This document shows positions 213 to 33,449 of a stretch of 64,000 nucleotides of DNA, in pieces. Positions within the stretch are counted from its first letter, which is position 1. Every line of letters begins with the position of its first letter. The translations under genes were made by a program, and so were the position numbers. Location: positions 4,249 through 68,248 of the forward strand of contig JBBIPK010000009.1 in the NCBI GenBank assembly GCA_037442885.1. The letters are read 5' to 3'. Origin of the DNA: Acidobacteriota bacterium (GTDB lineage Bacteria > Acidobacteriota > Terriglobia > Acidiferrales > 2-02-FULL-67-57). A model generated the notes under the pieces. The model was not told the DNA's origin. It saw nothing but the letters and a program-made list of their open reading frames with translations, and searched no databases.

Positions 213-214
213 CC

Positions 215-8188: not shown

Positions 8189-8223
8189 TCCCAGTTCTGT
8201 TTCGTGCGGCGCAACACATCCGC

Positions 8224-8229
8224 TAGAAT
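8224..8229 (+). promoter_or_regulatory. candidate -10 element TAGAAT within the 11-mer CCGCTAGAATC
   Basis: It lies 46 nt upstream of the lpxD ATG. The identical 11-mer CCGCTAGAATC recurs upstream of the gene at 33764. Confidence 0.3.
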
Positions 8230-8274
8230 CGCGTCGCATGTCTTCATTCTGAGGGCTAGAACGGAGAGCATCCG

Positions 8275-10812: not shown

Positions 10813-10846
10813 ACTCTATTCTCCACGGGTTTTAAGCGGATTTTAC

Positions 10847-10869
10847 CGCACACGCAGCGCCCGTGTGCG
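10847..10869 (-). terminator. 8-bp stem hairpin (CGCACACG / CGTGTGCG, 7-nt loop) immediately after the MTAP stop
   Basis: Perfect inverted repeat at 10847..10854 and 10862..10869. No U-tract follows on the minus strand, so terminator function is doubtful. Confidence 0.25.
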
Positions 10870-11733: not shown

Positions 11734-11744
11734 CAGGCCTCTCC

Positions 11745-12605
11745 TCAACTCACGGATGCCGGCGCAAACTCCGGGGCTGGTTCCGCAATCACTTCGTCGC
11801 CTTTCTGCCGCAGGTACGCCGCCGGCACCGTCGGGTCGTGAACAAAGAAACACAGCCATTCCTCGCGCACCGCCTGTGGAATCCACCGTTTCTTTTGTTC
11901 CAACGTCTGCAGCGGGTAGAGATCGTACCCCATGATCCAGGCAGCCGGCAGATGCGCGGTGGTAGGAACCATATCAGCGAAGAAAAACGCTGTGCGTCCT
12001 TGCGATCTGATCCGCACGCATTGCATATCCCGTGTATGGCCGGGTACGCGCACCAGCTCCACCCCTGGGATAATCTCTCTGTCGCCAGTCAGGGCTATCC
12101 ATTGGTTCGCTGCCTGCATGGGCTCGAAATTCTCCCGCAAAAAGCTGGCCCGATCCCTTTCCGTCGGTTGCCGCGCGTGCTCCAATTCGCCCGCCTGGAC
12201 GTAGTACTGCGCGCGCGAAAAGGTCGGCACGAGGGTCGCGTCGCTTGCCCGGCGCGTATTCCAGCCGCAGTGATCGAAGTGCAAATGCGTGTCCACCACG
12301 ATGTCAATGTCGTCTGGACTCAGGCCGTAAGCGCGCAGCGATCCGGGCAAGGTCGTTGTATGCTCAATGCCGTAGATATCAACCTGTTTCGCCGACATCT
12401 TGTCGCCGATCCCGGTTTCAATCAACACCGCCTGCTTCCCACTCAGAATCAACAACGAATGCAAGGCGAGTCGGATGCGGTTGCGCTCATCCGGTTGAAA
12501 CTTCTTCTGCCAGAGAACTCGCGGTACGACGCCGAACATCGCTCCCCCGTCCAGCCGAAAGAAGCCGTCGGATAGCAAATGGAGCTCAAATTGACCGAAC
12601 CTCAT
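11745..12605 (-). CDS. MBL-fold metallo-hydrolase
   Basis: Contains the HxHxDH motif (VDTHLHFDHCGW) and a later VPGHT. The likely start is ATG 12605, which forms an ATGA overlap with the mce stop. Confidence 0.75.
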   Translation of the reverse strand: MRFGQFELHLLSDGFFRLDGGAMFGVVPRVLWQKKFQPDERNRIRLALHSLLILSGKQAVLIETGIGDKMSAKQVDIYGIEHTTTLPGSLRAYGLSPDDIDIVVDTHLHFDHCGWNTRRASDATLVPTFSRAQYYVQAGELEHARQPTERDRASFLRENFEPMQAANQWIALTGDREIIPGVELVRVPGHTRDMQCVRIRSQGRTAFFFADMVPTTAHLPAAWIMGYDLYPLQTLEQKKRWIPQAVREEWLCFFVHDPTVPAAYLRQKGDEVIAEPAPEFAPASVS

Positions 12606-13012
12606 CCCTGTTTCTCCCGCGCCGCGGCCTCGACCAACTCTACCAATACGCCCCCGCAACTTTCCGGATGAAGGAATGCATAACGATGCCCGCCGGCTCC
12701 GGCTTCCGCTTTGGAGGGGATGATTCGTACGCCGGCAGTTTCGAGTGCGTGCACGTGGCGCTCGAGACCCTCCACCTCAATCGCGATGTGGTGCAGGCCC
12801 TCTCCGCGCTTTTCGATAAAGCGGGCAATGGGTGAATCGTTCCCGGTTGGCTCCATCAACTCGATTCGGGTATCACCCAGTGGCAACAATGCCACCCGCA
12901 CCTTCTCAGATGACAAGTGCTCAATGTCTGCAATACGCAATCCCAAACGCTCATAGAGGTTTCGCGCACTCTCCAGCGAACGCACGGCAATGCCGATGTG
13001 GTCAAGTTTCAT
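12602..13012 (-). CDS. mce: methylmalonyl-CoA epimerase (VOC/glyoxalase fold)
   Basis: 136 aa. MKLDHIGIAV...IELMEPTGNDSPIARFIEKRGEGLHHIAIEV...GGVLVELVE is the typical MCE pattern. Confidence 0.85.
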   Translation of the reverse strand: MKLDHIGIAVRSLESARNLYERLGLRIADIEHLSSEKVRVALLPLGDTRIELMEPTGNDSPIARFIEKRGEGLHHIAIEVEGLERHVHALETAGVRIIPSKAEAGAGGHRYAFLHPESCGGVLVELVEAAAREKQG

Positions 13013-13021
13013 TCTGGGTTC

Positions 13022-13984
13022 CTACCGAATCCCTGCGCTTCGGAGGAGTTCATCCACAACACTGTAGGGGTCCCGCTCGCGCCGCGCTACTTGCTCCGCA
13101 AAAGCGGCCAGCTCGTCTTCACTGCCGGGCGTGCCCAGCAACCGCGCCAGCAGGCGTTCGTGCAGAAGTTCGCGCAGTCGCTGCAACCAGCGCTGCGTAC
13201 GTTTTCTCTCCCTCAAGCCGTGCTCGTTGAGGTGGCGGTCGTAGGCGCCCAGAGCAACTGCCAGTTCTTCCACACCCGCCCCCTCCGTGGCCACGGTACG
13301 AACAATAGGTGGCACCCACCCATCGGCACGCGGGCTCAGGCCGGGAAGAACCTTTAACTCGTGCTCCAGCTTGTCGGCTCCTCCCCGGTCCGCTTTGTTG
13401 ATGACGAATACATCGGCAATCTCCATGATTCCGGCCTTAAAGGTCTGCACCTCATCACCCATGCCTGGAACCAGGACCAATACGGTCGTGTCCGCCAGCT
13501 TCACGATTTCCACCTCGTCCTGGCCTACCCCGACCGTCTCAATCAGGATTACTGACTTTCCCGCCGCATCCAGCACAAGCGCAGCGTCGGCGGTTGCGCC
13601 GGCCAGCCCACCCAGGTGCCCTCGCGTCGCCATGCTGCGAATGTAAATGCCCGCATCGGTGGCGTGGCGCTGCATGCGAATGCGGTCGCCGAGCAGCGCT
13701 CCTCCGGTAAACGGGCTGGTAGGATCCACGGCTATGATCCCGACCCGCCGGTGCTGCTCTCGATACGTTGCCGCCAGCTTGTCCACCAATGAACTTTTCC
13801 CCGCCCCGGGGGCTCCAGTAATACCGATGAGCGAGGCGTTACCCGTGTGCGGGAACAGCGCCTGGAGGAGTTTTTCGCTGCTCGGTTCCGCGTCTTCAAT
13901 CGCGCTGATTGCCCGCGCGATGGCCCGTGGGTCACCTGCGCGAATGCGCTCCACAACGGAATCGGCCGATGCCGTGCGGGTCAC
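13022..13984 (-). CDS. meaB: MeaB/ArgK-type G-protein chaperone for B12-dependent acyl-CoA mutases
   Basis: Contains the P-loop GITGAPGAGKSSL, then VDPTSPFTGGALLGDRIRM, then NKADR. The likely start is GTG 13984, which sits 7 nt after the acd stop and has a GAGG just upstream. The track ORF extends to 14059, inside acd. Confidence 0.85.
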   Translation of the reverse strand: MTRTASADSVVERIRAGDPRAIARAISAIEDAEPSSEKLLQALFPHTGNASLIGITGAPGAGKSSLVDKLAATYREQHRRVGIIAVDPTSPFTGGALLGDRIRMQRHATDAGIYIRSMATRGHLGGLAGATADAALVLDAAGKSVILIETVGVGQDEVEIVKLADTTVLVLVPGMGDEVQTFKAGIMEIADVFVINKADRGGADKLEHELKVLPGLSPRADGWVPPIVRTVATEGAGVEELAVALGAYDRHLNEHGLRERKRTQRWLQRLRELLHERLLARLLGTPGSEDELAAFAEQVARRERDPYSVVDELLRSAGIR

Positions 13985-13991
13985 AGCGACC

Positions 13992-15140
13992 TCAGTGCGG
14001 CTTCCCCAGCAACGTGCGCGCGATGACGAGCCGTTGAATCTCGCTCGTGCCTTCGCCAATCGTGCATAGCTTCACGTCGCGGTAGTACTTTTCTGCCGGG
14101 TAGTCCTTGACGAACCCGTAGCCACCGTAGATCTGCACGACCTCCCCGGCCGCTCGCACGGCGGCTTCGCTGGCATAGAGCTTGGCCATCGAGCAAAGCT
14201 TCGTGTCGACCTGACCGCGATCAGCCCGCTCCGCGGCCGCATAGGTCAGCCACCGCGCGGCTTCGATTTCTGTGCGCATCGTGGCCAGCTTCCACTGAAT
14301 CGCCTGGAACTCGCCGATCGCCTTCCCAAACTGCTTGCGCTCGTGTGCATAGCGCAGCGAATGCTCAAGCGCGCCGCCCGCAATGCCCAGCGACAACGCC
14401 GCTACGGAGATCCGACCGCGGTCCAGAACCTGCAGAACGTTTGCGAAGGCTTCGTCCGGCTGTCCCACCAGATTCTCCTGCGGCACGCGACACCCTTCGA
14501 AGATCATTTCTGCGGTATCGCTGGCCCGCAGGCCCAGCTTGTTTTCTTTCTTCCCGGCACGGAAGCCCGGGGTTCCTTTCTCCACGACGAAAGCAGAAAT
14601 TCCGTGATGTCCCTTTTCGGGATTGGTGGAGGCCATCACCACGCACACATCGGCGCGGTTGCCGTTGGTGATGAACGCCTTGGTACCATCCAACACCCAG
14701 TGATTCCCCTGACGCGTGGCTCGCAGCCGTAAGTTGCCTGCGTCCGACCCCGCCCCGGGTTCCGTCAATGCCCAGCAGCCAAGCTTTTTCCCGGCAGCCA
14801 GTGGGGCAAGATAACGCTGCTTTTGCTCCTGGTTTCCAAAGAGGTTGAGGTGGGAGCCGCACAGGCCAGCGTGGGCAGCCACGATGATGGCAACGGATGC
14901 ATCCACGCGCGCCAGTTCCTCAATCACGATTGTCCATTCCACATAGCCCAAGCCGGCACCTCCGTATTCCTCTGAAACAGTCACACCGAGAAGGTTCAGT
15001 TCGGCAAGCTTCGGGAGCAATTCGGACGGAAAGCGGGAGGCTTCATCCCATTCCATCACATGGGGGCGAATCTCGGCCTCGGCAAACTCTCGAACAGCAC
15101 GGCGCAGCTGCTCCTGCTCATCTGTGAACTGAAAATCCAC
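13992..15140 (-). CDS. acyl-CoA dehydrogenase (short/branched-chain type)
   Basis: 382 aa. Contains CWALTEPGAGSD, the catalytic-base region YEGTSEIQ-like (IGEGTSEIQRLVIAR), and QIYGGYGF. Confidence 0.9.
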   Translation of the reverse strand: MDFQFTDEQEQLRRAVREFAEAEIRPHVMEWDEASRFPSELLPKLAELNLLGVTVSEEYGGAGLGYVEWTIVIEELARVDASVAIIVAAHAGLCGSHLNLFGNQEQKQRYLAPLAAGKKLGCWALTEPGAGSDAGNLRLRATRQGNHWVLDGTKAFITNGNRADVCVVMASTNPEKGHHGISAFVVEKGTPGFRAGKKENKLGLRASDTAEMIFEGCRVPQENLVGQPDEAFANVLQVLDRGRISVAALSLGIAGGALEHSLRYAHERKQFGKAIGEFQAIQWKLATMRTEIEAARWLTYAAAERADRGQVDTKLCSMAKLYASEAAVRAAGEVVQIYGGYGFVKDYPAEKYYRDVKLCTIGEGTSEIQRLVIARTLLGKPH

Positions 15141-18563: not shown

Positions 18564-19466
18564 CTAGGCGGCGGCTTCGAGCCCACGCGCGACGTCGGCC
18601 AGCTCTTGCTTGGCTTGCTCGTCCAGAGGGAGGAACGGGGGGCGCGCCGGCCCACCATAATACCCGCGTAGGTCCATTACGTACTTGATGCCCGGCACGC
18701 CATAGGTGGAAACAACAAGCTTGACCGCAGGGATCACCTTCTGCTGCAGCCCGCGTGCACGATCGTGATTCCCGCTGCAATATGCTTCGTAAAGAGCAGT
18801 AAAAACCTCCGGCCATGCACAAGCCGCCGCCAGCACTCCACCACGTGCACCCAGCGCCAGTGATGGATACAACGTCGTGGCTGAGCCCACTAGAACGGTA
18901 AACGTGTCTGGAGTGCTCGCGATCATCTGGGCGACACGCTCCACATTCCCCGAGCTTTCCTTAATCCCGAGGATGTTCGGATGCTCGGCGAGCCGGGCGA
19001 CCCAGGGCGCTTCCACAGCCAGGCCGGTGAATTGCGGCACGGAGTAAATCAACACAGGGATCGGGCTGGCATCGGCAACGGCGCGGAAGTGCCGTTCAAG
19101 GGCTGCCTCGTTCATCTGCGGCTTGAAGTAGTGCGGTGTCTTGACCAGAGCAACCGCGTACCCCAACTCTGCTGCCTGCCGCGTCAGGGCAATCGTCTCC
19201 CTGGTCGCTTCCATTCCCGTGCCCGCAATCAGGAGCTTGTTCCTGTCCGCCGCCTTCCGAACAGTCTCCCAAACCCGCAGCTTTTCCTCTTCCCGCAAGT
19301 ACACAGACTCGCCCGTCGAACCCACCACGACGTATCCGGCAAGTTGCGTCTGGTTATACTTCCGAACGTTTTCGGCCAGATGATCGAGCGCCACTGTGCC
19401 ATCGCGAGCGAAAGGCGTGGTGAGAGGCGGATAGATGCCGTGCAGCTTGGGCGCAGGGACACTCAT
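18564..19466 (-). CDS. DapA/HOGA-family class I aldolase (dihydrodipicolinate synthase family)
   Basis: 300 aa. Contains VVGSTGES, the Schiff-base lysine context ILGIKESSG, and YSVPQFTG. The start overlaps the carB stop. Confidence 0.8.
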
Positions 19467-22400
19467 CGGGGGCCTCTCTTCGCGGGAGCAACAACTTCAG
19501 ATCCGGCGAGGGAGCTGCGGACGCCAGTTGCCGGGCCGGCACGTCTCATAGCCCGCAGGCTGCCTCGCGCCTCAAACCGTGGATACAGATCCTGGAGACA
19601 CAGAATCTCAATCTCTTCCTTCTGCAAAGCTTCGATCCCCGCCACCGCAGCGGTCGCTCCTTCCAATGTGGTGATGCAGGGAACCCGATGCCGTACTGCT
19701 GCGCGGCGAATCGCGCGCTCGTCGTAGAAGGACTTGCGCCCCAGCGGGGTATTGATGATCAGCTGTATCCTGCCGGTCTTGATCAGGTCCACGACATGAG
19801 GGCGACCCTCGTTGACCTTGAAGACACTCTCAACCGTCAGTCCCGCACCGGAGAGTGCCTGGGCCGTTCCCCGGGTAGCAACCAGCGCAAAACCCCGTTC
19901 CGTCAGTTTCCGCGCAATCGGCAATAATTCCGGCTTGTCCCTGTCATTCACACTCAGGAACGCCGTACCGGCTGTCGGTAAGCGCTGGTCTGCAGCCAAC
20001 TGCGCCTTGGCAAAGGACGACCCGAATCCCCGCGCTACGCCCATTACCTCGCCTGTGGACTTCATCTCCGGACCCAGAACTGTATCTACTCCACGAAAAC
20101 GGCTGAAGGGATAAACTGATGACTTGACCGCATAAAAGTGGTGGGAAGGTGCTTCCGCAGGCAGATCGAAATCCTTCAATCGTGCCCCGGTCATCAGCAG
20201 CGCTGCCATCTTCGCCAGCGGGATTCCGGTGGCCTTGCTGACATAGGGAACGGTGCGGGAGGCGCGCGGGTTCACCTCCAAAACGTGGACGGTGTCGCTC
20301 CCGCGGGGCACGGCGAACTGGACATTCATCAAGCCGACCACGTTCAGCGCCCGCGCTAGGCGCACCGTGTACTCCCGGAGGCATTCCAACACGCCAGGAG
20401 AAAACTGATAGGTGGGGAGCACACAGGAGGAGTCGCCGGAATGGATGCCGGCCTTCTCGATGTGCTCCATGATCCCGCCGATGTACACATCGGCGCCATC
20501 CGACAAGGCATCTACGTCAAGTTCAATGGTATCTTCGAGGAACTCGTCAATCAGAATGGGTAAGGCCTGAGCAAACTCGGTGGCCTGCGCGACGTACGTC
20601 TCCACCGTGGCCCGGTCGTAGGCAATCGCCATCGCCCGCCCGCCCAGCACGTAGGAGGGACGCACCAACACCGGATAGCCGATTTTCTCCGCCGCCTCGA
20701 CAGCTTCTTCTAGGCTCATCGCCGCGGCATGGCGCGGCTGCGGAATCTTCAACGCGCGCAGCAAGCGGCTGAACTGCTGGCGGTCCTCGGCCAAGTCAAT
20801 GGATTCCGGTGTTGTCCCGATGATAGGCACACCCGCCTGTTTGAGCGGCAATGCCAGATTCAGCGGCGTCTGGCCCCCGAACTGAACAATTACCCCGTTC
20901 GGCCGCTCCCGTTCGATGATGTTCATCACATCCTCGAACGTGACAGGCTCAAAGTAGAGCCGATCGGAAGTGTCATAATCGGTGGAGACAGTTTCCGGAT
21001 TGCAGTTGACCATAATGGTCTCGAAGCCCTTTTCCCGCAGTGCGAACGCCGCATGGCAGCAGCAGTAGTCAAACTCGATCCCCTGCCCGATGCGGTTCGG
21101 CCCGCTGCCCAGAATCACAATCTTGGGCCGCGACGTGGGCTCAGTCTCGTCTTCCTCTTCGTAGGTGGAATAGAGGTAGGGCGTGAAGGATTCGAACTCG
21201 GCCGCGCAGGTGTCCACCCGCTTGAAGACCGCTCGAATGTCGTGCGCGAGCCGCTGCCTCCGCACCGCGGCCGGCGTCGTGCCCCACAAGCGCGCTAGGT
21301 GCTCATCGGAAAAGCCCATCTGCTTTGCTTCGCGGAGGTTCTCTGCTGAAACGCCTTCGAGCGAAGCGTCTGCCAAGCGCGCTTCCGTCTCCACAATCTC
21401 CCGCATCTGTTGGAGAAACCAGGGATCAATGGACGTCAGCCGCGCTATTTCAGGCAAGCTCATCCCCTGCTGCAGAGCCGCGAAGAGCGCCTCCAATCGC
21501 TCCGGCGTGGGCACGCGTAAGAGTTCGCGCAAACGGTCCGGCTCGATGTTCCGCGGGAGATCAGTCCGCTTGCCGGTTTCGAGCGACCGAATCCCTTTGA
21601 GCAACGCCTCCTTGAAGGTTCGCCCGATGGCCATCACCTCGCCCACCGATTGCATCTGCGTGCCTAGGGTCCGCTCGACTGTGGGGAACTTCTCAAACTG
21701 CCACTTCGGGATCTTAACCACCACATAGTCGAGTGTAGGCTCGAAGCTCGCCGGTGTTTTGCGCGTGATGTCGTTCGGAATCTCGTCGAGCCGCAGGCCG
21801 ACCGCGAGCTTGGCCGCAATCTTGGCGATGGGGAAACCCGTGGCCTTGGAGGCCAGGGCCGAACTGCGCGACACGCGCGGATTCATCTCGATGACCACCA
21901 TCCGCCCCGACTGCGGATCCACTGCAAACTGGATGTTCGAGCCGCCCGTATCCACGCCCACCGCACGGATGATCTTCTGCGCTGCGTCCCGCATTTGCTG
22001 GTATTCCTTGTCCGTCAGGGTTTGCGCGGGCGCTACGGTGATCGAGTCGCCCGTGTGGATGCCCATCGCGTCGAAGTTTTCAATCGAGCAAATCACCACC
22101 ACGTTGTCGGCTAGGTCGCGCATGACCTCAAGCTCGAATTCCTTCCATCCCAGAACCGACTCTTCCACCAGCACCTCGCGCACCGGGCTCAGGTCAAGCC
22201 CCCGGCTCACCGCTTCCTCGAAATCCTCGGCGTTGTAGGCAATTCCGCCCCCGGTGCCGCCGAGTGTGAAGGAGGGTCGGATCACGACGGGAAAGCCCAC
22301 TTTCTCGGCGAAGCCACGCGCATCGGCCAGATTGTTCACCAGCGTACTGCGCGGGCAGTCCAGCCCGCAGCCCGCCACCACGTCCTTGAACCAGAGGCGG

Positions 22401-22783
22401 TCTTCGGCAATCTTGATGGCGCGGAGCGTCGCGCCAATCAACTCGACTCCATGCTTCTCCAGCGTCCCGCGCTCGGAGAGCTCCACGGCGAGGTTCAACG
22501 CTGTCTGTCCGCCGACCGTGGGCAGGAGCGCCTGCGGTCGCTCGCGGGCGATGATGGCCTCGAGGTAGTCAGCGGTCAGGGGCTCGATGTAGGTGCGGTC
22601 GGCAAACTCCGGATCGGTCATGATGGTGGCCGGGTTGGAATTGACCAGGACAACTTCGTAGCCCTCGCTCTTCAGCGCCTTGCAGGCCTGCGTGCCCGAA
22701 TAGTCAAACTCGCACGCCTGCCCGATGACAATCGGCCCCGACCCCACAATCAGTATCCGCTTGATGTCCGTCCGTTTCGGCAT
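19463..22783 (-). CDS. carB: carbamoyl-phosphate synthase large subunit
   Basis: Two ATP-grasp halves plus an MGS-like C-terminus. The start is ATG 22783 ([30 protein letters not shown]), overlapping the carA TGA by 1 nt (TGATG). Confidence 0.97.
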
Positions 22784-23907
22784 CAGTCTCTCGCCTGCTC
22801 CATCAATTCGCAAAACTGCCCAAACAGGTAGTGGGAGTCGTGCGGGCCGGGGGAAGCCTCGGGATGGTACTGCACGCTGAACAGCGGCAGGGAGCGATGC
22901 CGAAGGCCTTCGAGCGTGTCATCGTTCAGGTTCTTGTGGGTCAGCTCCACATCGCTTGCTGGCAGCGAATCGGGGTCAACCGCAAAGCCGTGGTTCTGAC
23001 TGGTGATTTCGACTTTTCCCGTTAACAGATTCTTTACGGGATGATTTGCCCCGTGGTGGCCGAACTTCAGCTTGTAGGTCTTGCCTCCGAGCGCCAGCCC
23101 GATGATCTGGTGACCCAGGCAGATGCCAAAGACGGGCACGCGGCCCATCAGTTTTCGCACCGCTGCGATGGCATAGGTGCAGGGCTAGGGGTCGCCGGGG
23201 CCGTTCGAGAGGAAGACGCCGTCGGGCTTGAGCGCGAGCGCGTCCTCGGGCGCAGTGAGTGCCGGGACCACGGTAACGCGGCAGCCCACGTCCACCACCC
23301 TGCGCAAGATGTTCTGTTTGATGCCGTAATCATAGACGACAACGTGGAACCGCGTGCCTTCTCCTCTGTGTTTTGTGGTTTCTGAAAGGGCTACGCTCGG
23401 CTCGGTCCATTCATAGGAGCCGGCACAGGTGACGGTGCGGGCCAAATCCAGGCCCACCATTGGCGGCAACGCGCGCGCGCGGGCAACGAGCCTCTCGGCA
23501 TCGGACTCAACTGTCGAAAGTACGCCGCGCATCGCCCCGTGCGTGCGCAGATGGCGCACCAGCGCGCGGGTATCAACGTGGCTGATGACCGGAATGTGGT
23601 GTGTCGCCAAGTACTCCTCGGCGGCCTGCTGGCTGCGCCAGTTGGAAGCCACCTGGGAGAACTCACGGACGATCAGGGCTTCGATGTAGGGGCGCGGAGC
23701 TTCCTGATCGAGGAGATTCGTGCCGACGTTGCCGATATGGGGGTAGGTGAGGCAGACAAGCTGGCCGGCGTAGGAAGGATCGGTGAAAACCTCCTGGTAA
23801 CCGGTGATCGAGGTATTGAAAACAACTTCCCCGCCCCGCGTGGTGCGGGCGCCATAGGCCTTACCGCGAAAGATGCGCCCGTCTTCGAGGGCGAGAATAG
23901 CGTGCAT
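22783..23907 (-). pseudogene. carA: carbamoyl-phosphate synthase small subunit interrupted by one in-frame TAG (23185..23187)
   Basis: Track ORFs 23185..23907 and 22783..23160 are in the same frame. Read-through gives ...[36 protein letters not shown]..., colinear with the E. coli CarA sequence ...SNGPGDPAPCDYAI...[10 protein letters not shown]. The catalytic Cys (GICLGHQ) and His (YHPEAS) are intact. Confidence 0.85.
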
Positions 23908-23911
23908 CCTC

Positions 23912-23937
23912 TCTCCCGTTTCTCCTCCCGCCTCCCG
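23912..23937. repeat. three copies of the heptamer YCTCCCG (minus strand CGGGAGR), two of them in tandem
   Basis: TCTCCCG at 23912..23918, then CCTCCCG CCTCCCG at 23924..23937. The array lies in the 33-nt lepB-carA spacer. On the coding strand it reads as stacked SD-like GGGAGG units. Confidence 0.45.
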
Positions 23938-23940
23938 TGC

Positions 23941-24549
23941 TCACCGGGTAATCTCCCCCGATCGCGTGACACTTCCCATCCGCCCCAGCGGCCAATAGAC
24001 GAAAACCGCCTTGCCGTAGATGTAGCGGCGGTGCACCGGCCCCCAACTGCGTGAGTCGTTGGAACTGGAGCGATGGTCACCCAGGACGTAGAAGTGATCC
24101 GGCGGAAGCGTGAGGGGCGGTGAGGACTGCCGCTCGCTCGATTGCTCCTGTAGATAGCCTTCTTGAAGCCTTACGCCGTTGACGTACACTCGTCCAGCTC
24201 GGATTTCGATGGTCTCACCGGGTAAACCGACGACGCGCTTGATAAACGATTTCGACAGATCCCGGGGGTAGCGGAATACAATGATGTCGCCCCGTTCAAT
24301 GGGGCGGAAGTGGTAAGCAAACTTGTTGATGAAGACTCGCTCCTGGTCTTCGAGCCCCGGCGCCATGCTCGTCCCTTCCACTTTGACCGGCTGATAGAGG
24401 AAAGCAATGATAACAACCGCCAAGAGACTGGCAGTCAGCAGTTCCCGAAGCCAAGTGATAGAGAGAAGAGAAGCAGCTGCGCGGCGAGCACCCTGCCCCC
24501 GGCGGCCCAGCAGGCCTAGCCGGGAGCCTGAGTGAAGTTCATCTGTCAT
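23941..24549 (-). CDS. lepB: signal peptidase I
   Basis: Contains an N-terminal TM segment, then the SM(A/E)P box (EGTSMAPGL), then GDIIVFRYP, then GDHRSSSNDSR. Confidence 0.9.
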   Translation of the reverse strand: MTDELHSGSRLGLLGRRGQGARRAAASLLSITWLRELLTASLLAVVIIAFLYQPVKVEGTSMAPGLEDQERVFINKFAYHFRPIERGDIIVFRYPRDLSKSFIKRVVGLPGETIEIRAGRVYVNGVRLQEGYLQEQSSERQSSPPLTLPPDHFYVLGDHRSSSNDSRSWGPVHRRYIYGKAVFVYWPLGRMGSVTRSGEITR

Positions 24550-24563
24550 CCCTGACTCTCAAC

Positions 24564-24592
24564 TTTATAACATGCTTTCCCGAGCTCTGCAA
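24564..24592 (-). promoter_or_regulatory. candidate promoter, TTGCAG-N17-TATAAA, for lepB-carAB
   Basis: On the minus strand, TTGCAG is at 24592..24587, followed by a 17-nt spacer and TATAAA at 24569..24564. The -10 ends 14 nt before the lepB ATG. Confidence 0.4.
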
Positions 24593-24600
24593 CTCTCGCG

Positions 24601-25299
24601 ATGAGCACCCCGGCCACACGCATCGCTCTTGTCATCCCCGCGCTGAACGAAGAGCACGCACTGCCGAAGGTGTTTGCGGAACTGCCGCCGGGGCTGTTCC
24701 GTCAAGTCATCGTGGTTGACAATGGCAGCACGGACCAGACTGCCGCGGTGGCCCGGCGGCACGCCGCAGAAGTCGTCTCCGAACCGCGTCGTGGCTACGG
24801 CCAGGCTTGTCTGGCGGGTCTCGCCCACGTCGCGCCCGACACAGACATCGTGGTTTTCTTGGATGCAGATGCGAGCGACCTACCGGCTGAGGTTTTCCAT
24901 TTGCTGGCTCCCCTGCAAGCAGGCGCGGCCGACCTTGTCATCGGCTCCCGTCGGCTGGGAAAGACCGACCCGGGAGCTCTCTATTGGCACCAGCGCTGGG
25001 GAAATCGCTCCTTCACCGCCCTGATCCGTTTGTTGTTCGGCTTTCGCTTCACCGACCTTGGTCCGTTCCGCGCCATCCGCTGGCGGGCGCTGCAGCAACT
25101 CGCTCTGCAGGATCGCGACTTCGGCTGGACGGTCGAAATGCAGATCAAGGCCGCCCGCCAAGGGTTGCGCATTGTCGAGATCCCGGTCAGTTATCGCCAA
25201 CGTCTCGGGCAGTCGAAGATTTCGGGTACCTGGAAAGGAAGCCTGAAGGCCGGCGGCAAGATCTTCTGGACGATTCTCCGCTTGCGCTTTTCGCGCTAA
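24601..25299 (+). CDS. family 2 glycosyltransferase (DPM1-like)
   Basis: Contains IALVIPALNEE...VIVVDNGSTD...FLDADASD (DxD) in a GT-A fold pattern. Confidence 0.8.
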   Translation: MSTPATRIALVIPALNEEHALPKVFAELPPGLFRQVIVVDNGSTDQTAAVARRHAAEVVSEPRRGYGQACLAGLAHVAPDTDIVVFLDADASDLPAEVFHLLAPLQAGAADLVIGSRRLGKTDPGALYWHQRWGNRSFTALIRLLFGFRFTDLGPFRAIRWRALQQLALQDRDFGWTVEMQIKAARQGLRIVEIPVSYRQRLGQSKISGTWKGSLKAGGKIFWTILRLRFSR

Positions 25300-25304
25300 C
25301 GGCT

Positions 25305-26225
25305 TCAGTTGTTCCGGCCGAGACCGAAGAAACTCCGGAACGTCTTGCTTACGCCGAAGGTTAAACCCGTCGCAGCGTCGCGGCGAGTAAGCCCGACGAT
25401 GCTGGCCACGTCCCAGCGGAAGCCGCCAGCGAAGATTTGAACTCCCAAGCGCGCCTCTCCGCGACTCCCCGTGCCCACCAGGGCGCTCGCGTCGGGCGTA
25501 GCCCGGGTGCTCTTCCTCCCCTGTACTTCCCCCACGATACTTAACCGCTCATGAACGGAAAGCACCAAGGCCCATCCCAGCAGCAGGACGTCGTTCTGGG
25601 AAAACAACCCGGCCGGCGCCTGCAATATCGCGACACCCACATGACCAAAGGTATTGAGCCGCCCGAAATGTTTCTGCACCAAGACAGTGGCAAACGCATT
25701 GGTCGTATTCAGGCCGATGCCGCGCCGTTCATCCGTAGTCGGCAATTCCACCCCGAAGCGAAGCCCAAAGGCGGGCCGCTTTTCTTGCTCTGGCACGAGC
25801 TTGATTTTCGTAGCCAGCGTGAACTCTCCAAAATCATTGGTCGCGGTCCCGTTGTTTTGCAGCGTAGGGAGGACAAAGGCGGGGCGCTGCTGGGTGACGG
25901 ACAGGAAATTGCGAATCGTGCCTTCCATCTGGATTTCAACTGCTCGACTCATCCCCAAGTGGAACCCGAGCGCGCCGACGCGGGTCAGATCGCCTGTCAG
26001 GCCCGAGAGGGGAAAGTCCACATCCTGCAAAAACTCAAAGCCGACTTGCACCAGTATCTCTTTCGGTGTCACTACCTCCACTTCTTGGGTCAGCAGGGGG
26101 CGCTGCTGGGCAGCCAGGGGAGGAGAGTCGAAAAAGCAGAGAGCGACCAACAGAAGAGTGACGCGTGCAAGCCGCAAGGCGCGCGTATTATGGAGAATCA
26201 AACACGCTGAGGCAAGCGCAGGCAA
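25305..26225 (-). CDS. putative outer-membrane beta-barrel protein
   Basis: 306 aa with a signal-like N-terminus (...LLLVALCFFDSPPLAAQQ), alternating amphipathic strands, and a C-terminal ...FRSFFGLGRNN. Family assignment (MetA-pathway/transporter-like) is tentative. Confidence 0.5.
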   Translation of the reverse strand: MPALASACLILHNTRALRLARVTLLLVALCFFDSPPLAAQQRPLLTQEVEVVTPKEILVQVGFEFLQDVDFPLSGLTGDLTRVGALGFHLGMSRAVEIQMEGTIRNFLSVTQQRPAFVLPTLQNNGTATNDFGEFTLATKIKLVPEQEKRPAFGLRFGVELPTTDERRGIGLNTTNAFATVLVQKHFGRLNTFGHVGVAILQAPAGLFSQNDVLLLGWALVLSVHERLSIVGEVQGRKSTRATPDASALVGTGSRGEARLGVQIFAGGFRWDVASIVGLTRRDAATGLTFGVSKTFRSFFGLGRNN

Positions 26226-26231
26226 AGCACC

Positions 26232-26957
26232 TCAGCCAACATCCAGCTGAGCCGAGAGAATTGCCAGCGCAGCCAGGACAGCGGTCTCTGTGCGGAGAAT
26301 CCACGGGCCTAACGAAGCCTCGACAAATCCGAAGCGGCTTGCAGTTCGCCTTTCCTCGGCCGTCCAGCCCCCCTCAGGTCCGACAGCAAGGGCAGCGGGG
26401 CGCGGATTCGCCGCTGCCCTGAGGATTCGACCCAACGGTGGCGCGTCAGGGACTTCCGAAAGCAGAATCCGTGTTTCGCAAGTGATACCAGCCAAGGCAT
26501 CCTGGAAGGCTCGCGGGGGAAGAAGACTCGGCACAGTCATCCGCCGCGACTGCTGCGCCGCCGCGTGGAGGATCTTCTCCCAGCGCGCCATCCGGCCTGG
26601 CGCAGCCTTGACCAAGTGCTTGTCCGAGCGGTTGGCGGCAATGGGAAGGATTTCGGAGACTCCCAGCTCCGTAGCCTTCTCCAGCGCCCACTCCAAGCGC
26701 CGAAAGTCGAAGATGGCAATGAGCAGAGTCGCCCCGGAAGTCTCTGGTTCCTTGTCTATTCGCTCCACGAGGGCAAACTCGACACGTCGCGGCTGGAGAG
26801 AAACGATGCGGGCGAGCCAGACACTGTGCTGGTCGGAGAGCTCATAGACTTCACCCAGGCGCGCGCGGAGAACTCTTGCCAGGTGATGAGCCTGCTCGCC
26901 CGTGAGGATCGCTCCCTGCGGGCCGAGCTTTTCGACGATGATGCGCCTGCGTGTCAC
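26232..26957 (-). CDS. rsmE: 16S rRNA (uracil1498-N3)-methyltransferase
   Basis: 241 aa with a PUA-like N-terminus (HHLARVLRARLGE) and a SPOUT C-terminus (AVGPEGGWTAEE...LGPWILRTETA). Confidence 0.85.
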   Translation of the reverse strand: MTRRRIIVEKLGPQGAILTGEQAHHLARVLRARLGEVYELSDQHSVWLARIVSLQPRRVEFALVERIDKEPETSGATLLIAIFDFRRLEWALEKATELGVSEILPIAANRSDKHLVKAAPGRMARWEKILHAAAQQSRRMTVPSLLPPRAFQDALAGITCETRILLSEVPDAPPLGRILRAAANPRPAALAVGPEGGWTAEERRTASRFGFVEASLGPWILRTETAVLAALAILSAQLDVG

Positions 26958-26999
26958 TCACTCGCGCAGAGAACGAAGGTTGCCGGACTCAGTCGGAGA

Positions 27000-28139
27000 T
27001 CAGCCGAAGATGTCCTTGACACGCCGGAACAGACTACTCTTCTCAACCGGGCGGTTCTCGGCCGGCCACGTTTCGGCCAATTGTTCGATCAAGCGCCGCT
27101 GCTCGCGGCTCAACTTTTTCGGCGTGACGACGTTGAGCTCGACCAACAGGTCCCCGCGCGCTCCCCCGTTCAGGCTAGGAAACCCCTTGCCCTTGAGCCG
27201 AATGATGGTGCCGCTCTGTGTCCCGCCCGGAATCTTGATTCGTTCCTCCCCGTCGAGAGTCGGCACGCGAATCTCGGCTCCCAGAGCCGCTTGCGGGAAC
27301 GTAATCGGCACCGAGCAGTAGAGCGTGTTTTCCCGGCGCTCGAATATCGGGTGCTCCTGCACGTGCAGGACGACGTAGAGGTCGCCCGCCGGACCTCCCT
27401 GGCTTCCGGCCTCCCCTTCCCCCGCGATTCGTAGCCTGGTCCCGGTGTCCACGCCGGCAGGAATCTTGATCTCCAGGGTCCGCTCGCGTTGCACTTGACC
27501 GCCACCCCGACACTCGGGGCAGGGATCACGCAGCACCTGGCCCGTGCCCTGACACTGCGGACACGTACGGGAAACGGTGAAGAATCCCTGCTGGTAGCGG
27601 AGCTGTCCGCGCCCGTGGCAGGCTTCGCAGGACGTGGGGCCGGTGCCGGCGCGGGCGCCCGAGCCCCGGCAGGAAGGGCAGGGTTCCCGCCCCGGCACTT
27701 TGATCTTGGTGGTAAGGCCACGCGCTGCCTCTTCGAAGCTGATCTCCATGTCGTAGCGAAGATCAGCGCCGCGCCGCACGCGTGCTCGGCGCCTCCTGCC
27801 TCCACCCAATCCAAACAGGTCTTCCAAGTTGAAGAGTCCACCGAACAGGTCTTCGAAATCCGCAAAGATGGTTTCGTCAAAGTCGGCGAACGGCTGCGCC
27901 CCCAATCCCGCGTGGCCGTAGCGGTCGTAGGCCGTCCGCTTCTGGGGATCGGCCAGGACGGTGTAGGCTTCCGTGATTTCCTTGAACCGTTCTTCCGCTT
28001 CGTGTTTGTTGCTCGGATTCCGGTCGGGATGCCACTGGAGGGCGAGGCGCCGGTAGGCTTTCTTGATTTCCTCGGCACCGGCCTGGCGGTTCACGCCGAG
28101 AACGTCATAGTAGTCGCGCTTTTGATTCGTAGTCGGCAT
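27000..28139 (-). CDS. dnaJ: molecular chaperone DnaJ
   Basis: Contains the J-domain (DYYDVLGV...HPDRN), a G/F region and four CxxCxGxG zinc motifs. The likely start is ATG 28139. Confidence 0.95.
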
Positions 28140-28143
28140 TCCT

Positions 28144-28692
28144 TCAGGTGCTGTTTCCATCGGAGCTTGCCGGGCGCACGGCCACTTTGACCAAAGCGGG
28201 CCGCAGCAGTTTCCCTTTGAAGGTATAGCCCTGCTGAAGCTCCTCCATCACCTCGCGGTCACCGAGCTCTTCGGTCTCAATCCGCTCCACCGCATGATGC
28301 AGATAGGGATCGAACAACTCGCCCAGTGCCTTGACCGGCTTCAGCCCGCGGAGCAGCAGAGCGTCAAGCAACTGCTTGTAAATGAGCTCCACACCTTTGC
28401 GATATTCCTCGTCTTGAAGGGCGTTGTTGGGCGCACGGAGAGCCCGCTCAAAGGCATCCAGAACCGGCAGCAGAGCGAGAATCAAGTCCGCCTCGGCGCG
28501 CTCGCGAAACTCCTGCGCGTCGCGTTCAGCGCGCTTGCGGTAGTTCTCGAAGTCTGCTTGCCGCCGGATCAGCTGCTCAAAGAGGGAATCCCGCTCAGCC
28601 TGGAGTTTCTTGAACGATTCCTCCAGGGACGGCTCGGCCGCCATAGCGGTCTCGGGTGCGGGCGTGCGGGAAACGTCTTCCTCGTCCCTCAA
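28144..28692 (-). CDS. grpE: nucleotide exchange factor GrpE
   Basis: Contains a coiled-coil N-terminus, then [16 protein letters not shown], then FDPYLHHAV. The TTG start is preceded by GGGAGAGGGGAAG. Confidence 0.9.
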
Positions 28693-28725
28693 CTTCCCCT
28701 CTCCCTGAATCTGGCAGGCGTTCTG

Positions 28726-29775
28726 CTAGTTTTCATGCAAGACCCGATCGAAGAGCCGGGCGACATAGGTGACGGCCGTGATCACCCGCGGATAATCCAT
28801 GCGGGTAGGGCCTAGGATGGCGAGAGAACCCAGAGGCCCAGCTCCGGCCCCATAGGAAGCGCTGATGAGAGCGTAATGCTGGATGGCCGGAGACAGTTGT
28901 TGCAGACCGATTCTGATGTGCACATTGGTTTCGACCTGTTCAACAGTGGCGCGCAGCAGGTGAACCAGCTTCTCTTTTTGCTCAATGGTCTGCAGCAGTT
29001 CGCGTAATTCGTCCCGGCCAGCTTCCTCCGCCTGCTCGATGAGATGGGGTGTGCCCTCCACGTAGACCGCGGCGCCTTCGCGGATGCCCGCCAGACTCTC
29101 CCGGCACAGCAGCGCCGCCCTGCGGGCGAGCCGTTCGTAACGCGAACGATCGCGAGCCGCACGCCGCTCGAGCTCCGCCGGGATGCTGGCCAGCGCCCAG
29201 CCGGGAAAATTGTCATTCAGGTACTGGGCGGTGCATTCCAACTCTTCGGGGGTAAACGGCTTCGGCAGGCGTAGCAGCACATCCTGGACCTGGCCGGTCT
29301 TGGTGAGGAGGATGACGAGCACCCGGTTTCCTTCCATCTGCAGAAAGCGCACTTGTTCCAGGGGCTCGCGGGTAACCGGCAGGGAGACGACGATGCCGAG
29401 TCCCTGTGCCAGTTCAGCGAGCACGTGCGAAGCCCGGGGGAGCAATTCTTCACCCTTGCCGCGCTGACTCAGGAGACGCGCATTGATCCAGTGCCGGTCG
29501 GCGCGGGAGAGTCGGGCACGCTCGGCCACCTGCCGGGCATAGAACTCGTATGCTTTGATCGTCGGTACTCGGCCGGCCGACGTGTGCGGTTGATGCAGGA
29601 ATCCTTGCGCTTCCAGGCGCGCCATGACTGCACGAATCGTCGCCGAAGAGAGTTCTCCGTGGTGCTGGCGAGCTATCTGACCCGAGGCAACTTCCTCTCC
29701 GGTCGCGATGTAGGTGTGCACGATCGCAGCCAGAATTTCCTCGTTGCGCCGCTGTTCTTTTTCCGGCGACACCAT
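28726..29775 (-). CDS. hrcA: heat-inducible transcription repressor HrcA
   Basis: Contains a winged-helix N-terminus (ILAAIVHTYIATGEEVASGQIA...SSATIRAVMARLEAQGFL) and the HrcA C-terminal domain. The likely start is ATG 29775. Confidence 0.9.
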   Translation of the reverse strand: MVSPEKEQRRNEEILAAIVHTYIATGEEVASGQIARQHHGELSSATIRAVMARLEAQGFLHQPHTSAGRVPTIKAYEFYARQVAERARLSRADRHWINARLLSQRGKGEELLPRASHVLAELAQGLGIVVSLPVTREPLEQVRFLQMEGNRVLVILLTKTGQVQDVLLRLPKPFTPEELECTAQYLNDNFPGWALASIPAELERRAARDRSRYERLARRAALLCRESLAGIREGAAVYVEGTPHLIEQAEEAGRDELRELLQTIEQKEKLVHLLRATVEQVETNVHIRIGLQQLSPAIQHYALISASYGAGAGPLGSLAILGPTRMDYPRVITAVTYVARLFDRVLHEN

Positions 29776-29816
29776 GCTGCGCAGCCTCGCCGAACCTCCA
29801 ATCGCTTTCCGCGCTG

Positions 29817-29845
29817 ATTTTACTGGCGCTGGCAAAGAGGGTCAA
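29817..29845 (-). promoter_or_regulatory. candidate promoter, TTGACC-N17-TAAAAT, for hrcA-grpE-dnaJ
   Basis: On the minus strand, TTGACC is at 29845..29840, followed by a 17-nt spacer and TAAAAT at 29822..29817. The -35 begins 3 nt after the aldehyde dehydrogenase stop. Confidence 0.5.
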
Positions 29846-29847
29846 GC

Positions 29848-31344
29848 TTACGGGTTCGTGTCAATCTGCGCCCGCTGCAAAGTACCGCTGAAGTCCACGT
29901 AGAGGCTCTTCCACTCGGAGAAGACGTCCAGGGCGGCCTGGCCGGCGTCCCGGTGCCCGTTGCCGGTTTGCTTGGTGCCTCCGAAGGGGAGCTGGATTTC
30001 CGCCCCAATGGTGGGCGCGTTGATGTAGACGATGCCGGTGTAGAGATCGCGCATGGCTGCGAAGGCCCGGTTCACATCGCGGGTATACAGAGCGGAGGAG
30101 AGGCCATAGACAACACCGTTGTTGATTTCGACTGCTTCCTCGAAGGTGTCAAATGGGATCACGGAAACAACGGGGCCGAAGATCTCTTCCTGAGAGATCC
30201 GCATCTTGGGGTCGCACTCACCGAAGATAGTGGGCGCATAGAAGGAGCCGTGCTCCCAGTCTCCGTCCGTCAGGGGATGCCCGCCGCACAAGAGACGCGC
30301 CCCTTCATCCTTCCCAATCTGCACATAGCTGTCCACTGTCTTGCGCTGGCTCTCGTTGATGCAAGGACCCATCTCCACGGTAGGATCCAGGCCGTTACCG
30401 ACCTTCAGGCTCTTCGCCCGGCGGACGAACTTCTCGGTGAATTCCTTGTACACCTTCTTGTGCACTGCGACGCGGCTTGCCGCCGTGCAGCGCTGCCCGG
30501 TCGTGCCGAAGCCGCCCCAGAGGGCGCCGTCCACCGCCAAGTCCAGGTCGGCGTCGTCCATCACGATGATCATGTTCTTGCCGCCCATCTCCAGGCTGCA
30601 ATGGCGGAAGTCCGGCGCGCAGGCTTCCGACACCATCCGCCCCACCTCGGTGGAACCCGTGAAGGAGATGACGCTGATGTCCTTGTGCTTCATGAGGGGC
30701 ACACCCACTGCGCCCCCCGAGCCGGTCACGAAGTTCAGCACTCCCTTGGGCAAACCTGCTTCGTTCAAGATCTTGACAAAATTCCAGCCCGAGAGCGGCG
30801 TATCGGTTGCCGGCTTGAAGACAACAGTATTTCCGCAGACGAGAGCGGGAAAAATCTTCCACGAGGGAATCGCCATGGGGAAATTCCAGGGGGTGATAAT
30901 TCCGCAGACACCGAGAGGCATCCGCACCGACATGGCAAACTTGTTGGGGAGCTCGGAGGGAACGGTGTGCCCGAACAGGCGGCGTCCCTCACCGGCCATG
31001 TAGAAGCCCATGTCAATGGCTTCCTGCACATCGCCGCGGGTTTCCTTGAGGATTTTCCCCATCTCGCGGGTCATGTCACGGGCCAATTCTTCTTTTCGCT
31101 CCACGAGCATTTGCGCGGCCCGATAGAGAATCTCGGCCCGTTTCGGGGCTGGCAGAAGCCGCCAGGAGCGGCAGGCCTCGCGCGCGGCTGCGATGGCGTC
31201 CTCGACGTCACACTTATCCGAGGCCTGGAATACTCCGATAACATCGCGGCGGTCAGCGGGGTTGGTGTTCTCAAAGGTTTTCCCGCACCGCGCCTCCACC
31301 CACTCACCGTTGATGAAATTCTTGTACACCTTGGGGGCTGCCAT
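29848..31344 (-). CDS. NAD(P)-dependent aldehyde dehydrogenase
   Basis: 498 aa. Contains [15 protein letters not shown] and the catalytic-Cys region GQRCTAASR. Confidence 0.9.
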
Positions 31345-31445
31345 GATGACCTCCTCTGAAGAGACTGCCAGCTCGTTTCGAAACTAGTGTAAGTCAGGAA
31401 CAGACTCGAGACAACGCCGGGAACGAAGGGATCAGGGCGTCCATC

Positions 31446-31904
31446 TCAAGGGTCGCGGGGAGTGTTCGCTGCTTCTCCCGACGCTGTGGCCGGGCGCGGG
31501 GCCGCCTGGCCAGCGGTTTCTGGACCCAGGCCCAGTTTGATGAGGGAGAGAGCATCCGGCTTGCCGGTCTCCGGATGTCCGTGCTCTTTCTGGAAGCGGC
31601 GCATCGCTGCCTCTGTGGCACTGTCCCACTTACCTGTGGGCTCCGCCTGCAAATAGCCCGCTCGGCGTAACGCTTCCTGAATCTCCCGGATGCGCTCTGG
31701 GCTGGGCTGCTGCTGCGCTTGCTGCCTCCGAGAGCGTTTCCGCGCCGAGCGCCCGAATGGTTTCTTGGCTTGCTGCTGAAAAGCTGCACTCAGCCCCTTC
31801 CCGGGAGGTGGGTCGGCGTCAGCTGTCAGCGGAAGAAAAGCAAGCGGGGACAGCCAGAGGGCGAGGAAGGCAAGCTGGTGACGAATTCGTTGATGCAAGA
31901 GCAT
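31446..31904 (-). CDS. secreted peptidoglycan-binding-domain protein
   Basis: Contains a signal peptide and a C-terminal PG_binding_1-like repeat (IREIQEALRRAGYLQAEPTGKWDSATEAAMRRFQKEHG). Confidence 0.6.
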   Translation of the reverse strand: MLLHQRIRHQLAFLALWLSPLAFLPLTADADPPPGKGLSAAFQQQAKKPFGRSARKRSRRQQAQQQPSPERIREIQEALRRAGYLQAEPTGKWDSATEAAMRRFQKEHGHPETGKPDALSLIKLGLGPETAGQAAPRPATASGEAANTPRDP

Positions 31905-31916
31905 GAACGCAGGCGC

Positions 31917-33449
31917 TTAGGGGAGCGTGCGACCCAGATAGATCCAGAGCCAGCGGTCCTGCACGCGGCGCTTGATTCCGAAGACCACGTCGTCGCCAGA
32001 GCGCAAGCCGCGCTCGGTTGCCCGGAACTCCTCCAGGGTGCGCAGGCGGCGCTGATTGATTTCGACGATCAGGTCACCGCGAACCAGACCCACCTCATCC
32101 GCAAAGCCACCGGGCTCGACTTCCCGGACGACCAGACCCTGGTCTTGCTCGGGGTCAAGGCCCCAGCGCTGGAGAAGCCCAGGCGTTATTTCCTCCACAC
32201 GCAACCCCAGGCGTCCGGCCTCGACTTCCGCCTCGGCCGCAGCCTGCGGCTCGCCGCACCGGTCCGGGAAGACCTTGCAGCGATCTTCGACGCGAACCGA
32301 AATGCTTTGTTTCTTCTTTGCCCGAACGACCGTGAGGTGCACTTCCTGCCCAACCGGCGTTGCCGCCACGAGATCCACCAATTCGTCGCCGCCGCGGATG
32401 CGCTGGCCGTTCACCTCGGTGATGACATCTCCCCGCTGCAGGCCTGCCCGCTCGGCTGGGCTGCCCGGTTGCACCTCATCTACGATGTAGCCGGAATCCG
32501 CGCCGAAACTTCGCAACAGCACTTCCCGCTCCGCGTCCGAGCGCCGGATGGATTGGACACCAATCGAGCCGCGCACAACGCGACCCTGGGCACGAATCTG
32601 GTTGTAGACCTCACGCGCGATGTTGGACGGCAAGGCAAAACCGATGCCGGCGTTGGCGCCGCTGTTGGTCGCGATCATGGTATTGATGCCGATGACCTGA
32701 CCGGCCAGGTTCACCAGCGGCCCGCCGGAATTGCCCCGGTTGATGGCGGCATCCGTCTGCAGGAAGCGCTGGAACTGCTCGGCGCCAAGAACCTCGCGTC
32801 CTTTGTAACTGATGATTCCCGCCGTGACTGTAGCGTCGAAGCCAAACGGACTGCCTACGGCGAGCACCCAGTCCCCTACCTGTACGCCGTCGGAGTTACC
32901 CAGTTCGGCCACGGGGAGGGATCGATTGGGGTTGATCTTGATGACGGCGAGGTCGGTTTCCTGATCATAGCCCACCAGTTCCGCCTTGTATTCTTTGCTG
33001 TCACCGTGCACGCGCACCGTAATCCGGTCCGCCTGCCGCACGACGTGGTGATTGGTCAGGATGTAGCCACTCGCATCCACGATGACGCCGGAGCCCAAGC
33101 TGGTTTCCCGGAAGCTGCGGGGTGGCCCGAAGTCAAAGAAGCGTTCGAAGAAATCCTCGGGGGATTCGGGGCGGGAGCGGCGCTCGCTGGGTCGGACGAT
33201 GGTGTCGGTGCTGATGTTGACGACGGCCGGCTCGACCTGCTTGGCCACCTTGCTGAAAGCAGTGGAGAGCTCCACCGGGGAGGGGATGGCCAGCGGAGCG
33301 CCCGCGTTTCCCGAGCCGTCCCGGGCCGCGCGCACCCCGTTCGACACCAGTGTCCCCAGGAGGATGCCAACGGCCAGCGCGGCCGCAATCGCCAGGCGCG
33401 TACCCCACCGTTGCCGGTTGAACCACTGATAAACTTCTTCTGGCTTCAT
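31917..33449 (-). CDS. htrA: periplasmic serine endoprotease DegP/HtrA (two PDZ domains)
   Basis: Contains the trypsin-like core (TNHHV...D...GNSGGPLVN) and two PDZ domains. It has an N-terminal TM/signal segment. Confidence 0.9.
   Translation of the reverse strand: MKPEEVYQWFNRQRWGTRLAIAAALAVGILLGTLVSNGVRAARDGSGNAGAPLAIPSPVELSTAFSKVAKQVEPAVVNISTDTIVRPSERRSRPESPEDFFERFFDFGPPRSFRETSLGSGVIVDASGYILTNHHVVRQADRITVRVHGDSKEYKAELVGYDQETDLAVIKINPNRSLPVAELGNSDGVQVGDWVLAVGSPFGFDATVTAGIISYKGREVLGAEQFQRFLQTDAAINRGNSGGPLVNLAGQVIGINTMIATNSGANAGIGFALPSNIAREVYNQIRAQGRVVRGSIGVQSIRRSDAEREVLLRSFGADSGYIVDEVQPGSPAERAGLQRGDVITEVNGQRIRGGDELVDLVAATPVGQEVHLTVVRAKKKQSISVRVEDRCKVFPDRCGEPQAAAEAEVEAGRLGLRVEEITPGLLQRWGLDPEQDQGLVVREVEPGGFADEVGLVRGDLIVEINQRRLRTLEEFRATERGLRSGDDVVFGIKRRVQDRWLWIYLGRTLP

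Follow-up and report, generated by a model that had tools for sequence, protein, structure and literature searches.

An In-Frame TAG in an Otherwise Intact Acidobacterial carA Gene, Very Probably a Recent and Non-Conserved One-Base Lesion

Structure and Operon Context of the Interrupted carA Gene

One in-frame TAG interrupts an otherwise intact carA gene in the 64-kb stretch of acidobacterial DNA analysed here (referred to as the window), and this stop codon is very probably a recent, non-conserved one-base lesion rather than an evolved recoding or split-gene feature. The gene (22783..23907, minus strand), which encodes the glutamine-hydrolysing small subunit of carbamoyl-phosphate synthetase, an enzyme required for arginine and pyrimidine synthesis, was identified by translation, Pfam matches, and alignment with E. 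coli CarA. It runs from an ATG at 23907 to a TGA at 22783 and comprises 374 codons plus the TGA. The internal stop occupies codon 241 (23187..23185 on the minus strand, read as CTA on the plus strand) in the codon series gac ccc TAG ccc tgc; as written, carA encodes residues 1–240 only. A sequence-only reading of the window had proposed that two carA fragments lie in one frame, split by nothing but the TAG and with no further lesion in the gene, and straight translation agrees on both points, giving exactly one internal stop and two open reading frames in a single frame, 23185..23907 (240 aa) and 22783..23160 (125 aa from the first GTG).

The division of functional elements between the two parts is uneven. 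The N-terminal fragment (residues 1–240; 23188..23907, minus strand) carries the complete CPSase small-chain domain PF00988 (residues 5–130, profile 1–126 of 126, E = 2.1e-49), the start of the GATase domain PF00117 (residues 190–240, profile 1–55 of 190), and the oxyanion loop NGPGDP. The C-terminal part (residues 242–374; 22786..23184, minus strand) contains PF00117 profile positions 66–189 of 190, matched within ORF 22783..23160, together with the catalytic residues Cys263 (23121..23119), His348 (22866..22864), and Glu350 (22860..22858), all on the minus strand. The TAG thus lies within the class-I glutaminase domain, 22 codons ahead of the catalytic Cys263, and since the break falls between profile positions 55 and 66 it interrupts the glutaminase fold itself, away from the junction of the two CarA domains. 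The Cys-His-Glu triad is present in the DNA, but the GATase domain is divided by the TAG over two ORFs, and a complete GATase domain in one polypeptide requires that the TAG be read through or be an error. A protein terminated at the TAG is therefore without the entire triad. In-frame starts shortly after the stop are limited to GTG 23160 and ATG 23148, 8 and 12 codons on, and inspection of the sequence found no evident Shine–Dalgarno (SD) sequence ahead of either.

When the TAG is read through, the product shows 91% identity to the full-length nearest relative protein, P0001, and residues 3–373 are colinear with residues 5–378 of the solved E. coli CarA (1BXR/1CS0 chain B, E = 2.5e-128). The E. 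coli protein (PDB 1BXR, 1JDB, 1CS0, and 1A9X, chain B) has the same two-domain layout, and its gene likewise lies directly upstream of carB. Its triad Cys269/His353/Glu355 corresponds to Cys263/His348/Glu350 of the window. The colinearity with E. coli SNGPGDP-A-PCDYAI noted earlier was recovered in the structure-chain alignment, where the TAG stands opposite Ala246, directly after the oxyanion loop G241-P-G-D-P245; acidobacterial orthologues have Glu at this position. The glutaminase Cys and His motifs, described earlier as intact, are found at the DNA level as GICLGH (Cys263) and YHPEAS (His348/Glu350).

The surroundings of the gene are equally well preserved, and here too the sequence-only reading, which had pointed to an intact SD between lepB and carA and to a 1-nt carA/carB overlap, was correct. 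The downstream gene carB (CPSase large subunit; 19463..22783, minus strand) is intact, with complete CPSase_L domains and an MGS domain by Pfam, and its ATG (22783..22781) shares one base with the carA TGA in the sequence TGATG. Upstream, the signal peptidase I gene lepB (23941..24549, minus strand; Pfam) is separated from carA by a 33-nt spacer, in which the SD-like GGGAGAGAGG stands directly before the carA ATG. Both arrangements were compared with L081, one of the two metagenome contigs that are the nearest relatives of the window: lepB agrees in gene order and lengths, the carA/carB junction is equal (carA end and carB start at L081 position 11125), and the first 325 aa of CarB are 96% identical. 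The gene thus stands immediately ahead of carB, to which the TGATG overlap couples it, and it belongs to the CarA family on every test except that of an uninterrupted frame.

The Homologous Codon in Relatives

The nearest relatives, L081 and L082, are the metagenome contigs ENA ERZ27247351 k141_1112863 and JGI 3300006865 Ga0073934_10000538, which carry protein P0001. Positions 22783..33449 of the window match positions 1..12100 of both contigs with identical gene order, HtrA-Aldh-HrcA-GrpE-DnaJ-RsmE-OMP-GT2-LepB-CarA-CarB, at about 90% nucleotide and 91–96% protein identity. In both contigs the codon homologous to the carA TAG is GAG. A wider scan, in which each species was represented by one genome, yielded 80 acidobacterial loci with at most 72% CarA identity, and among these the codon is GAG in 52, GAA in 24, and CAG, GCA, GAC, and GAT in one each, with no stop in any of the 80. 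At the protein level, Glu occupies the site in all 120 best homologues, which are single chains of 360–408 aa, and in 5/5 members of the nearest cluster at about 91% identity (P0001 and four further members). Altogether, the site is sense in 80/80 genomes and 125/125 closest proteins, with Glu in 201 of the 205. Because the nearest relatives have GAG and none has a stop, a single G→T transversion separates the TAG from the ancestral codon, and the TAG is private to this sequence.

Conservation of the same TAG in related genomes had been named beforehand as the observation that would speak against a recent mutation. A shared TAG can be rejected for the 80 genome loci and 125 proteins compared, and with no conserved TAG among relatives, recent mutation and error stay the leading options. 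Nothing closer than L081 and L082 was found in any collection searched, the best species-representative genome being 72% identical in CarA; nearest matches at 91% and 72% indicate a very thinly sampled lineage of Terriglobia-like Acidobacteriota. Both carA fragments, dapA, and dnaJ were looked up as exact products and gave no match to a same-species sequence, and a degenerate DNA pattern for a carA peptide, run over metagenome contigs, returned only the 91% relative Ga0073934_10000538.

Selection Downstream of the Stop

The age of the lesion can be judged from the part of carA that follows it. Relative to L081, both sides of the TAG have a dS of about 0.3, and dN/dS is 0.194 for codons 1–240 and 0.093 for codons 242–374. 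The 120 relatives define 133 positions upstream of the TAG and 94 downstream of it that are at least 90% conserved; the window departs from these at 5 and 1, respectively, the sole exception downstream being A303S, which four relatives share. The low dN/dS and the retention of conserved positions imply purifying selection downstream of the stop for essentially the whole history of the lineage. By inference from these sequence comparisons, the TAG would be either extremely young or not real. An old or decaying pseudogene, which the sequence-only reading had already thought unlikely, is rejected on the same figures and on the presence of one lesion only.

TAG as a Terminator and the Search for Recoding Machinery

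Reassignment of UAG throughout the genome had been considered unlikely at the outset, on the ground that TAG acts as a genuine terminator elsewhere in the window, and the gene set bears this out. In a rough set of 51 other predicted genes, TAG is the stop of about 17, TGA of about 24, and TAA of about 10. The TAG stops at 18564, 36824, 54204, 58477, and 60436, which had been cited as examples, end genes whose Pfam matches run to the profile end; TAG-ended genes that do so include DHDPS, Aminotran_3 (403/403), Thiolase_C_1 (142/144), Amidohydro_1 (344/345), and Lyase_aromatic (465/466). Moreover, hrcA of L081 ends in TAG at exactly the same place, and the C-terminal residues ahead of it agree as well. 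Genome-wide UAG reassignment is ruled out by these two observations. As a separate observation on composition, the tetranucleotide CTAG occurs only 48 times in the 64 kb.

Dedicated decoding elements were also sought. ARAGORN detected no tRNA gene in the 64-kb window, no Rfam family reached the gathering threshold there, and its approximately 55 annotated genes include no pyl gene, no methylamine methyltransferase gene, and no second carA. The fold of the 103 nt following the TAG is no better than that of shuffled controls (z = −0.68), giving no indication of a stimulatory RNA structure. The immediate flanks of the stop, Asp-Pro before and C after, are also present in relatives with GAG; being inherited from GAG-bearing sequences, they do not suggest that the site has adapted to read-through. 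The data firmly exclude three readings: an old pseudogene, reassignment of TAG, and a programmed recoding site that is conserved.

Sequence Quality of the Window

Whether other genes of the window are intact was judged by Pfam coverage of all predicted genes. Every other Pfam-matched gene has a full-length match, including the MBL-fold, glyoxalase/epimerase, and MeaB genes on the minus strand; the exception is a short enoyl-CoA hydratase (51235..51870). In a direct comparison, nine genes are colinear with their L081 counterparts and have the same ends, and carA is the only clearly interrupted gene among about 55. A motif-linked miscall of CCCGAG as CCCTAG, considered because the ancestral site matches CYCGRG, was rejected: CCCGAG stands unchanged 51 times in the window, against five occurrences of CCCTAG. 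In-frame stops flagged by GC3 alone proved uninformative, since antisense frames of this 63% GC sequence are also high in GC3.

Two further loci were looked at in the course of this survey. The enoyl-CoA hydratase-like ORF 51235..51870 (plus strand, 211 aa) matches positions 21–194 of the 251-position ECH_1 profile, the usual C-terminal helical part being missing, and an SCP-x-type thiolase gene starts 16 nt after it; the ORF could be a naturally short or a truncated crotonase. On the same strand, a thiolase-like gene (53037..54206, 389 aa) and a DUF35/ChsH2-type OB-fold gene (54207..54758, 183 aa) share a frame, with a TAG followed immediately by an ATG. As they represent two distinct and complete Pfam families, this looks like normal tight packing and not like a second interrupted gene.

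Termination Context and Ammonia-Dependent Synthesis

A cytosine following the stop codon is reportedly a weak termination context in E. coli. The literature retrieved on fourth-base stop context consisted of eukaryotic and viral matches only, with none bacterial. In E. coli, Asp-Pro and Glu-Pro before a stop codon lead to strong SsrA tagging, Asp-Pro being among the motifs at which termination stalls, and peptides ending in Pro are released slowly (Hayes, Bose & Sauer 2002 and Pierson 2016, as cited in PMC7246954); the assay of PMC7246954 itself found C-terminal proline to be without effect on expression. The truncated carA chain resembles these cases in ending ...Gly-Asp-Pro directly before the stop. 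The E. coli effect of Asp-Pro or Pro-Pro was, however, seen at natural or engineered C-termini, and its extension to an acidobacterium would be by analogy; evidence on termination context comes from E. coli and M. pneumoniae and not from Acidobacteria. Furthermore, the Asp-Pro effect in E. coli is tmRNA tagging, and raised read-through at the carA TAG is only putative. With Asp-Pro before it, C after it, and a residue-tolerant site, the carA TAG could plausibly be leaky if it is real. A second route around the lesion is suggested by CarB itself, which in E. coli forms carbamoyl phosphate from NH3 in vivo when alone (Rubino 1987, as cited in PMC6245113).

Weighing the Explanations

With moderate confidence, the lesion is considered a real and very young nonsense allele, produced by G→T in the ancestral Glu codon GAG and a feature of the DNA itself rather than of the record alone. 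The allele could be fixed in the sequenced culture or be the dominant variant of a sampled population. In either case, RF1 would terminate at codon 241, after ...Gly-Asp-Pro, and release a 240-residue fragment. This fragment would possess the CarB-docking N-domain and the oxyanion loop and would lack Cys263, His348, and Glu350, and glutamine-dependent carbamoyl-phosphate synthesis would then be abolished or much diminished. The TGATG overlap would probably couple translation less effectively to carB as well. The cell would be expected to rely on arginine and pyrimidines from outside, on carbamoyl phosphate made from NH3 by CarB alone, or on low-level near-cognate read-through.

The possible alternative that carries the most weight after this, held tentatively, is a sequencing, consensus, or assembly error, in which the true codon 241 is GAG (Glu) and the T is wrong in the deposited sequence, possibly through a low-coverage position, a minority strain variant chosen by a MAG assembler, or a polishing mistake. 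It would fit a lone substitution, one step from the ancestral codon, in a normally indispensable gene under strong purifying selection; no independent same-species sequence in the collections searched confirms the T, and every one of the closest relatives is an uncultured MAG or a metagenome contig, which raises the possibility that the window itself is part of a MAG, where consensus artefacts are commoner. Against it, the other Pfam-matched genes, aside from the short enoyl-CoA hydratase, contain no frameshift, nonsense codon, or truncated domain, the colinearity of nine genes with L081 speaks for an evidently low error rate, and the unchanged CCCGAG sites argue against a systematic motif-linked miscall. 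In modern consensus assemblies, substitutions are the least frequent type of error, and it is for this reason, and because the window is otherwise clean, that a real allele is placed ahead of an error. Conversely, carbamoyl phosphate normally comes from carAB alone, so that loss of carA function should be strongly counter-selected in nature, which adds relative weight to an artefact, a laboratory-acquired mutation, or functional read-through. The last of these, in the form of a maintained, site-specific decoding of Asp-Pro-UAG-C by a near-cognate or suppressor tRNA that yields enough full-length CarA, is quite unlikely. The perfectly preserved region after the TAG, the tolerance of the site for Glu, Gln, Asp, and Ala in relatives, and the impaired termination after Asp-Pro in E. 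coli (Hayes 2002, as cited in PMC7246954) are consistent with it. However, a very young lesion accounts equally well for the downstream intactness, the absence of the TAG from all 205 relatives examined, five of them at 91% identity, gives no evidence of maintenance, and neither the 3′ fold nor the tRNA and Rfam searches of the window lend it support. It is very unlikely, too, that the TAG is real and the gene nevertheless works because a leaky Asp-Pro-UAG-C, decoded by near-cognate tRNAs or an undetected suppressor, would supply enough CarA.

A CarA made in two pieces is highly improbable. It would require re-initiation at GTG 23160 or ATG 23148 and non-covalent assembly of the 240-aa fragment with one of about 121–125 aa on CarB. 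The two in-frame starts lie close behind the TAG, and the fragments together contain all catalytic elements, but residues 242–249 or 242–253 would be lost, neither start is preceded by an SD-like sequence, the break lies inside the GATase fold and not at a domain boundary, and 120/120 best homologues are single chains, with a stop at this site in 0/80 genome loci. That UAG encodes pyrrolysine or some other amino acid, whether here alone or throughout the genome, is hardly conceivable: the in-frame TAG itself is all that suggests it, whereas TAG ends about a third of the predicted genes of the window at profile ends, the hrcA TAG is retained in a relative, neither pyl genes nor methyltransferases that depend on Pyl are among the approximately 55 annotated genes, no tRNA was found in the window, and the residue in relatives is an ordinary, variable Glu or Ala beside the oxyanion loop. 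Of the four options listed by the sequence-only reading, recent mutation and error consequently stand; the two-piece option is weakened by a break inside the GATase domain (at about profile position 56 of 190) that no relative shares, and evolved site-specific read-through by the lack of conservation and of a 3′ RNA structure.

Comparison with Known Systems and Implications

The preferred reading, a real and very young nonsense allele, places the carA TAG among ordinary internal-stop pseudogenes and nonsense alleles, which show the same one-base change from GAG to TAG, unshared with relatives, in a gene whose remainder is intact. There is no difference in kind; the only notable points of the present case are a gene on which prototrophy normally depends and a stop that may be leaky. 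Pyrrolysine recoding in methylamine methyltransferase genes likewise involves an in-frame UAG in an otherwise intact enzyme gene. Pyl sites, however, are conserved in orthologues, lie at a catalytic residue, and are accompanied by pylTSBCD, whereas the carA UAG is unique to one sequence, falls at a variable position, and has no pyl gene or tRNA in the window. Naturally split genes are characterised by a break at a domain boundary, an own start and SD for the second part, and recurrence in relatives; the carA break lies inside the GATase domain, its second part has no SD, and the homologues are single chains. The lesion is not novel; it is an ordinary internal stop of a known kind, and nothing about it challenges current understanding.

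For annotation, the locus is best recorded as carA with an internal stop (pseudo); it should neither be split into a pair of hypothetical proteins nor be cited in favour of recoding. A real T would predict auxotrophy for arginine and pyrimidines or ammonium-dependent growth through CarB alone. It would bear on metabolic reconstruction and on the cultivation medium for a little-known lineage, and it would provide a naturally occurring example in which leaky termination after Asp-Pro could be studied. Should the leaky reading be true, an essential biosynthetic gene of a free-living acidobacterium would be kept alive by leaky termination, and the carA TAG might represent a low-expression or conditional allele.

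Other Genes in the Window

Aside from carA, several genes of the window merit a brief description. Conserved-looking ORFs without a Pfam match are located at 25305..26225 (minus strand), 40963..42120 (plus strand), and 31394..31789 (minus strand). The ORFs without a Pfam match include a 306-aa putative outer-membrane protein encoded between rsmE and the GT2 gene, whose L081 counterpart has 298 aa and is also without a Pfam match. An unusual three-domain fusion of 1020 aa (33764..36826, plus strand) combines an APH-type kinase, a peptidase M23, and a class-III aminotransferase. A protein of 1079 aa (55240..58479, plus strand) joins PD40/WD40-like beta-propeller repeats to a C-terminal amidohydrolase domain, and its gene is followed by that of a 4HBT thioesterase and then by a histidine/phenylalanine ammonia-lyase-type gene. 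Genes of methylmalonyl-CoA metabolism are dispersed over two regions (11745..15140 and 49087..50793), with a glyoxalase-fold gene (possibly an epimerase), a MeaB GTPase, and an acyl-CoA dehydrogenase at 12.6–15.1 kb on the minus strand and the methylmalonyl-CoA mutase large chain at 49.1–50.8 kb on the plus strand.
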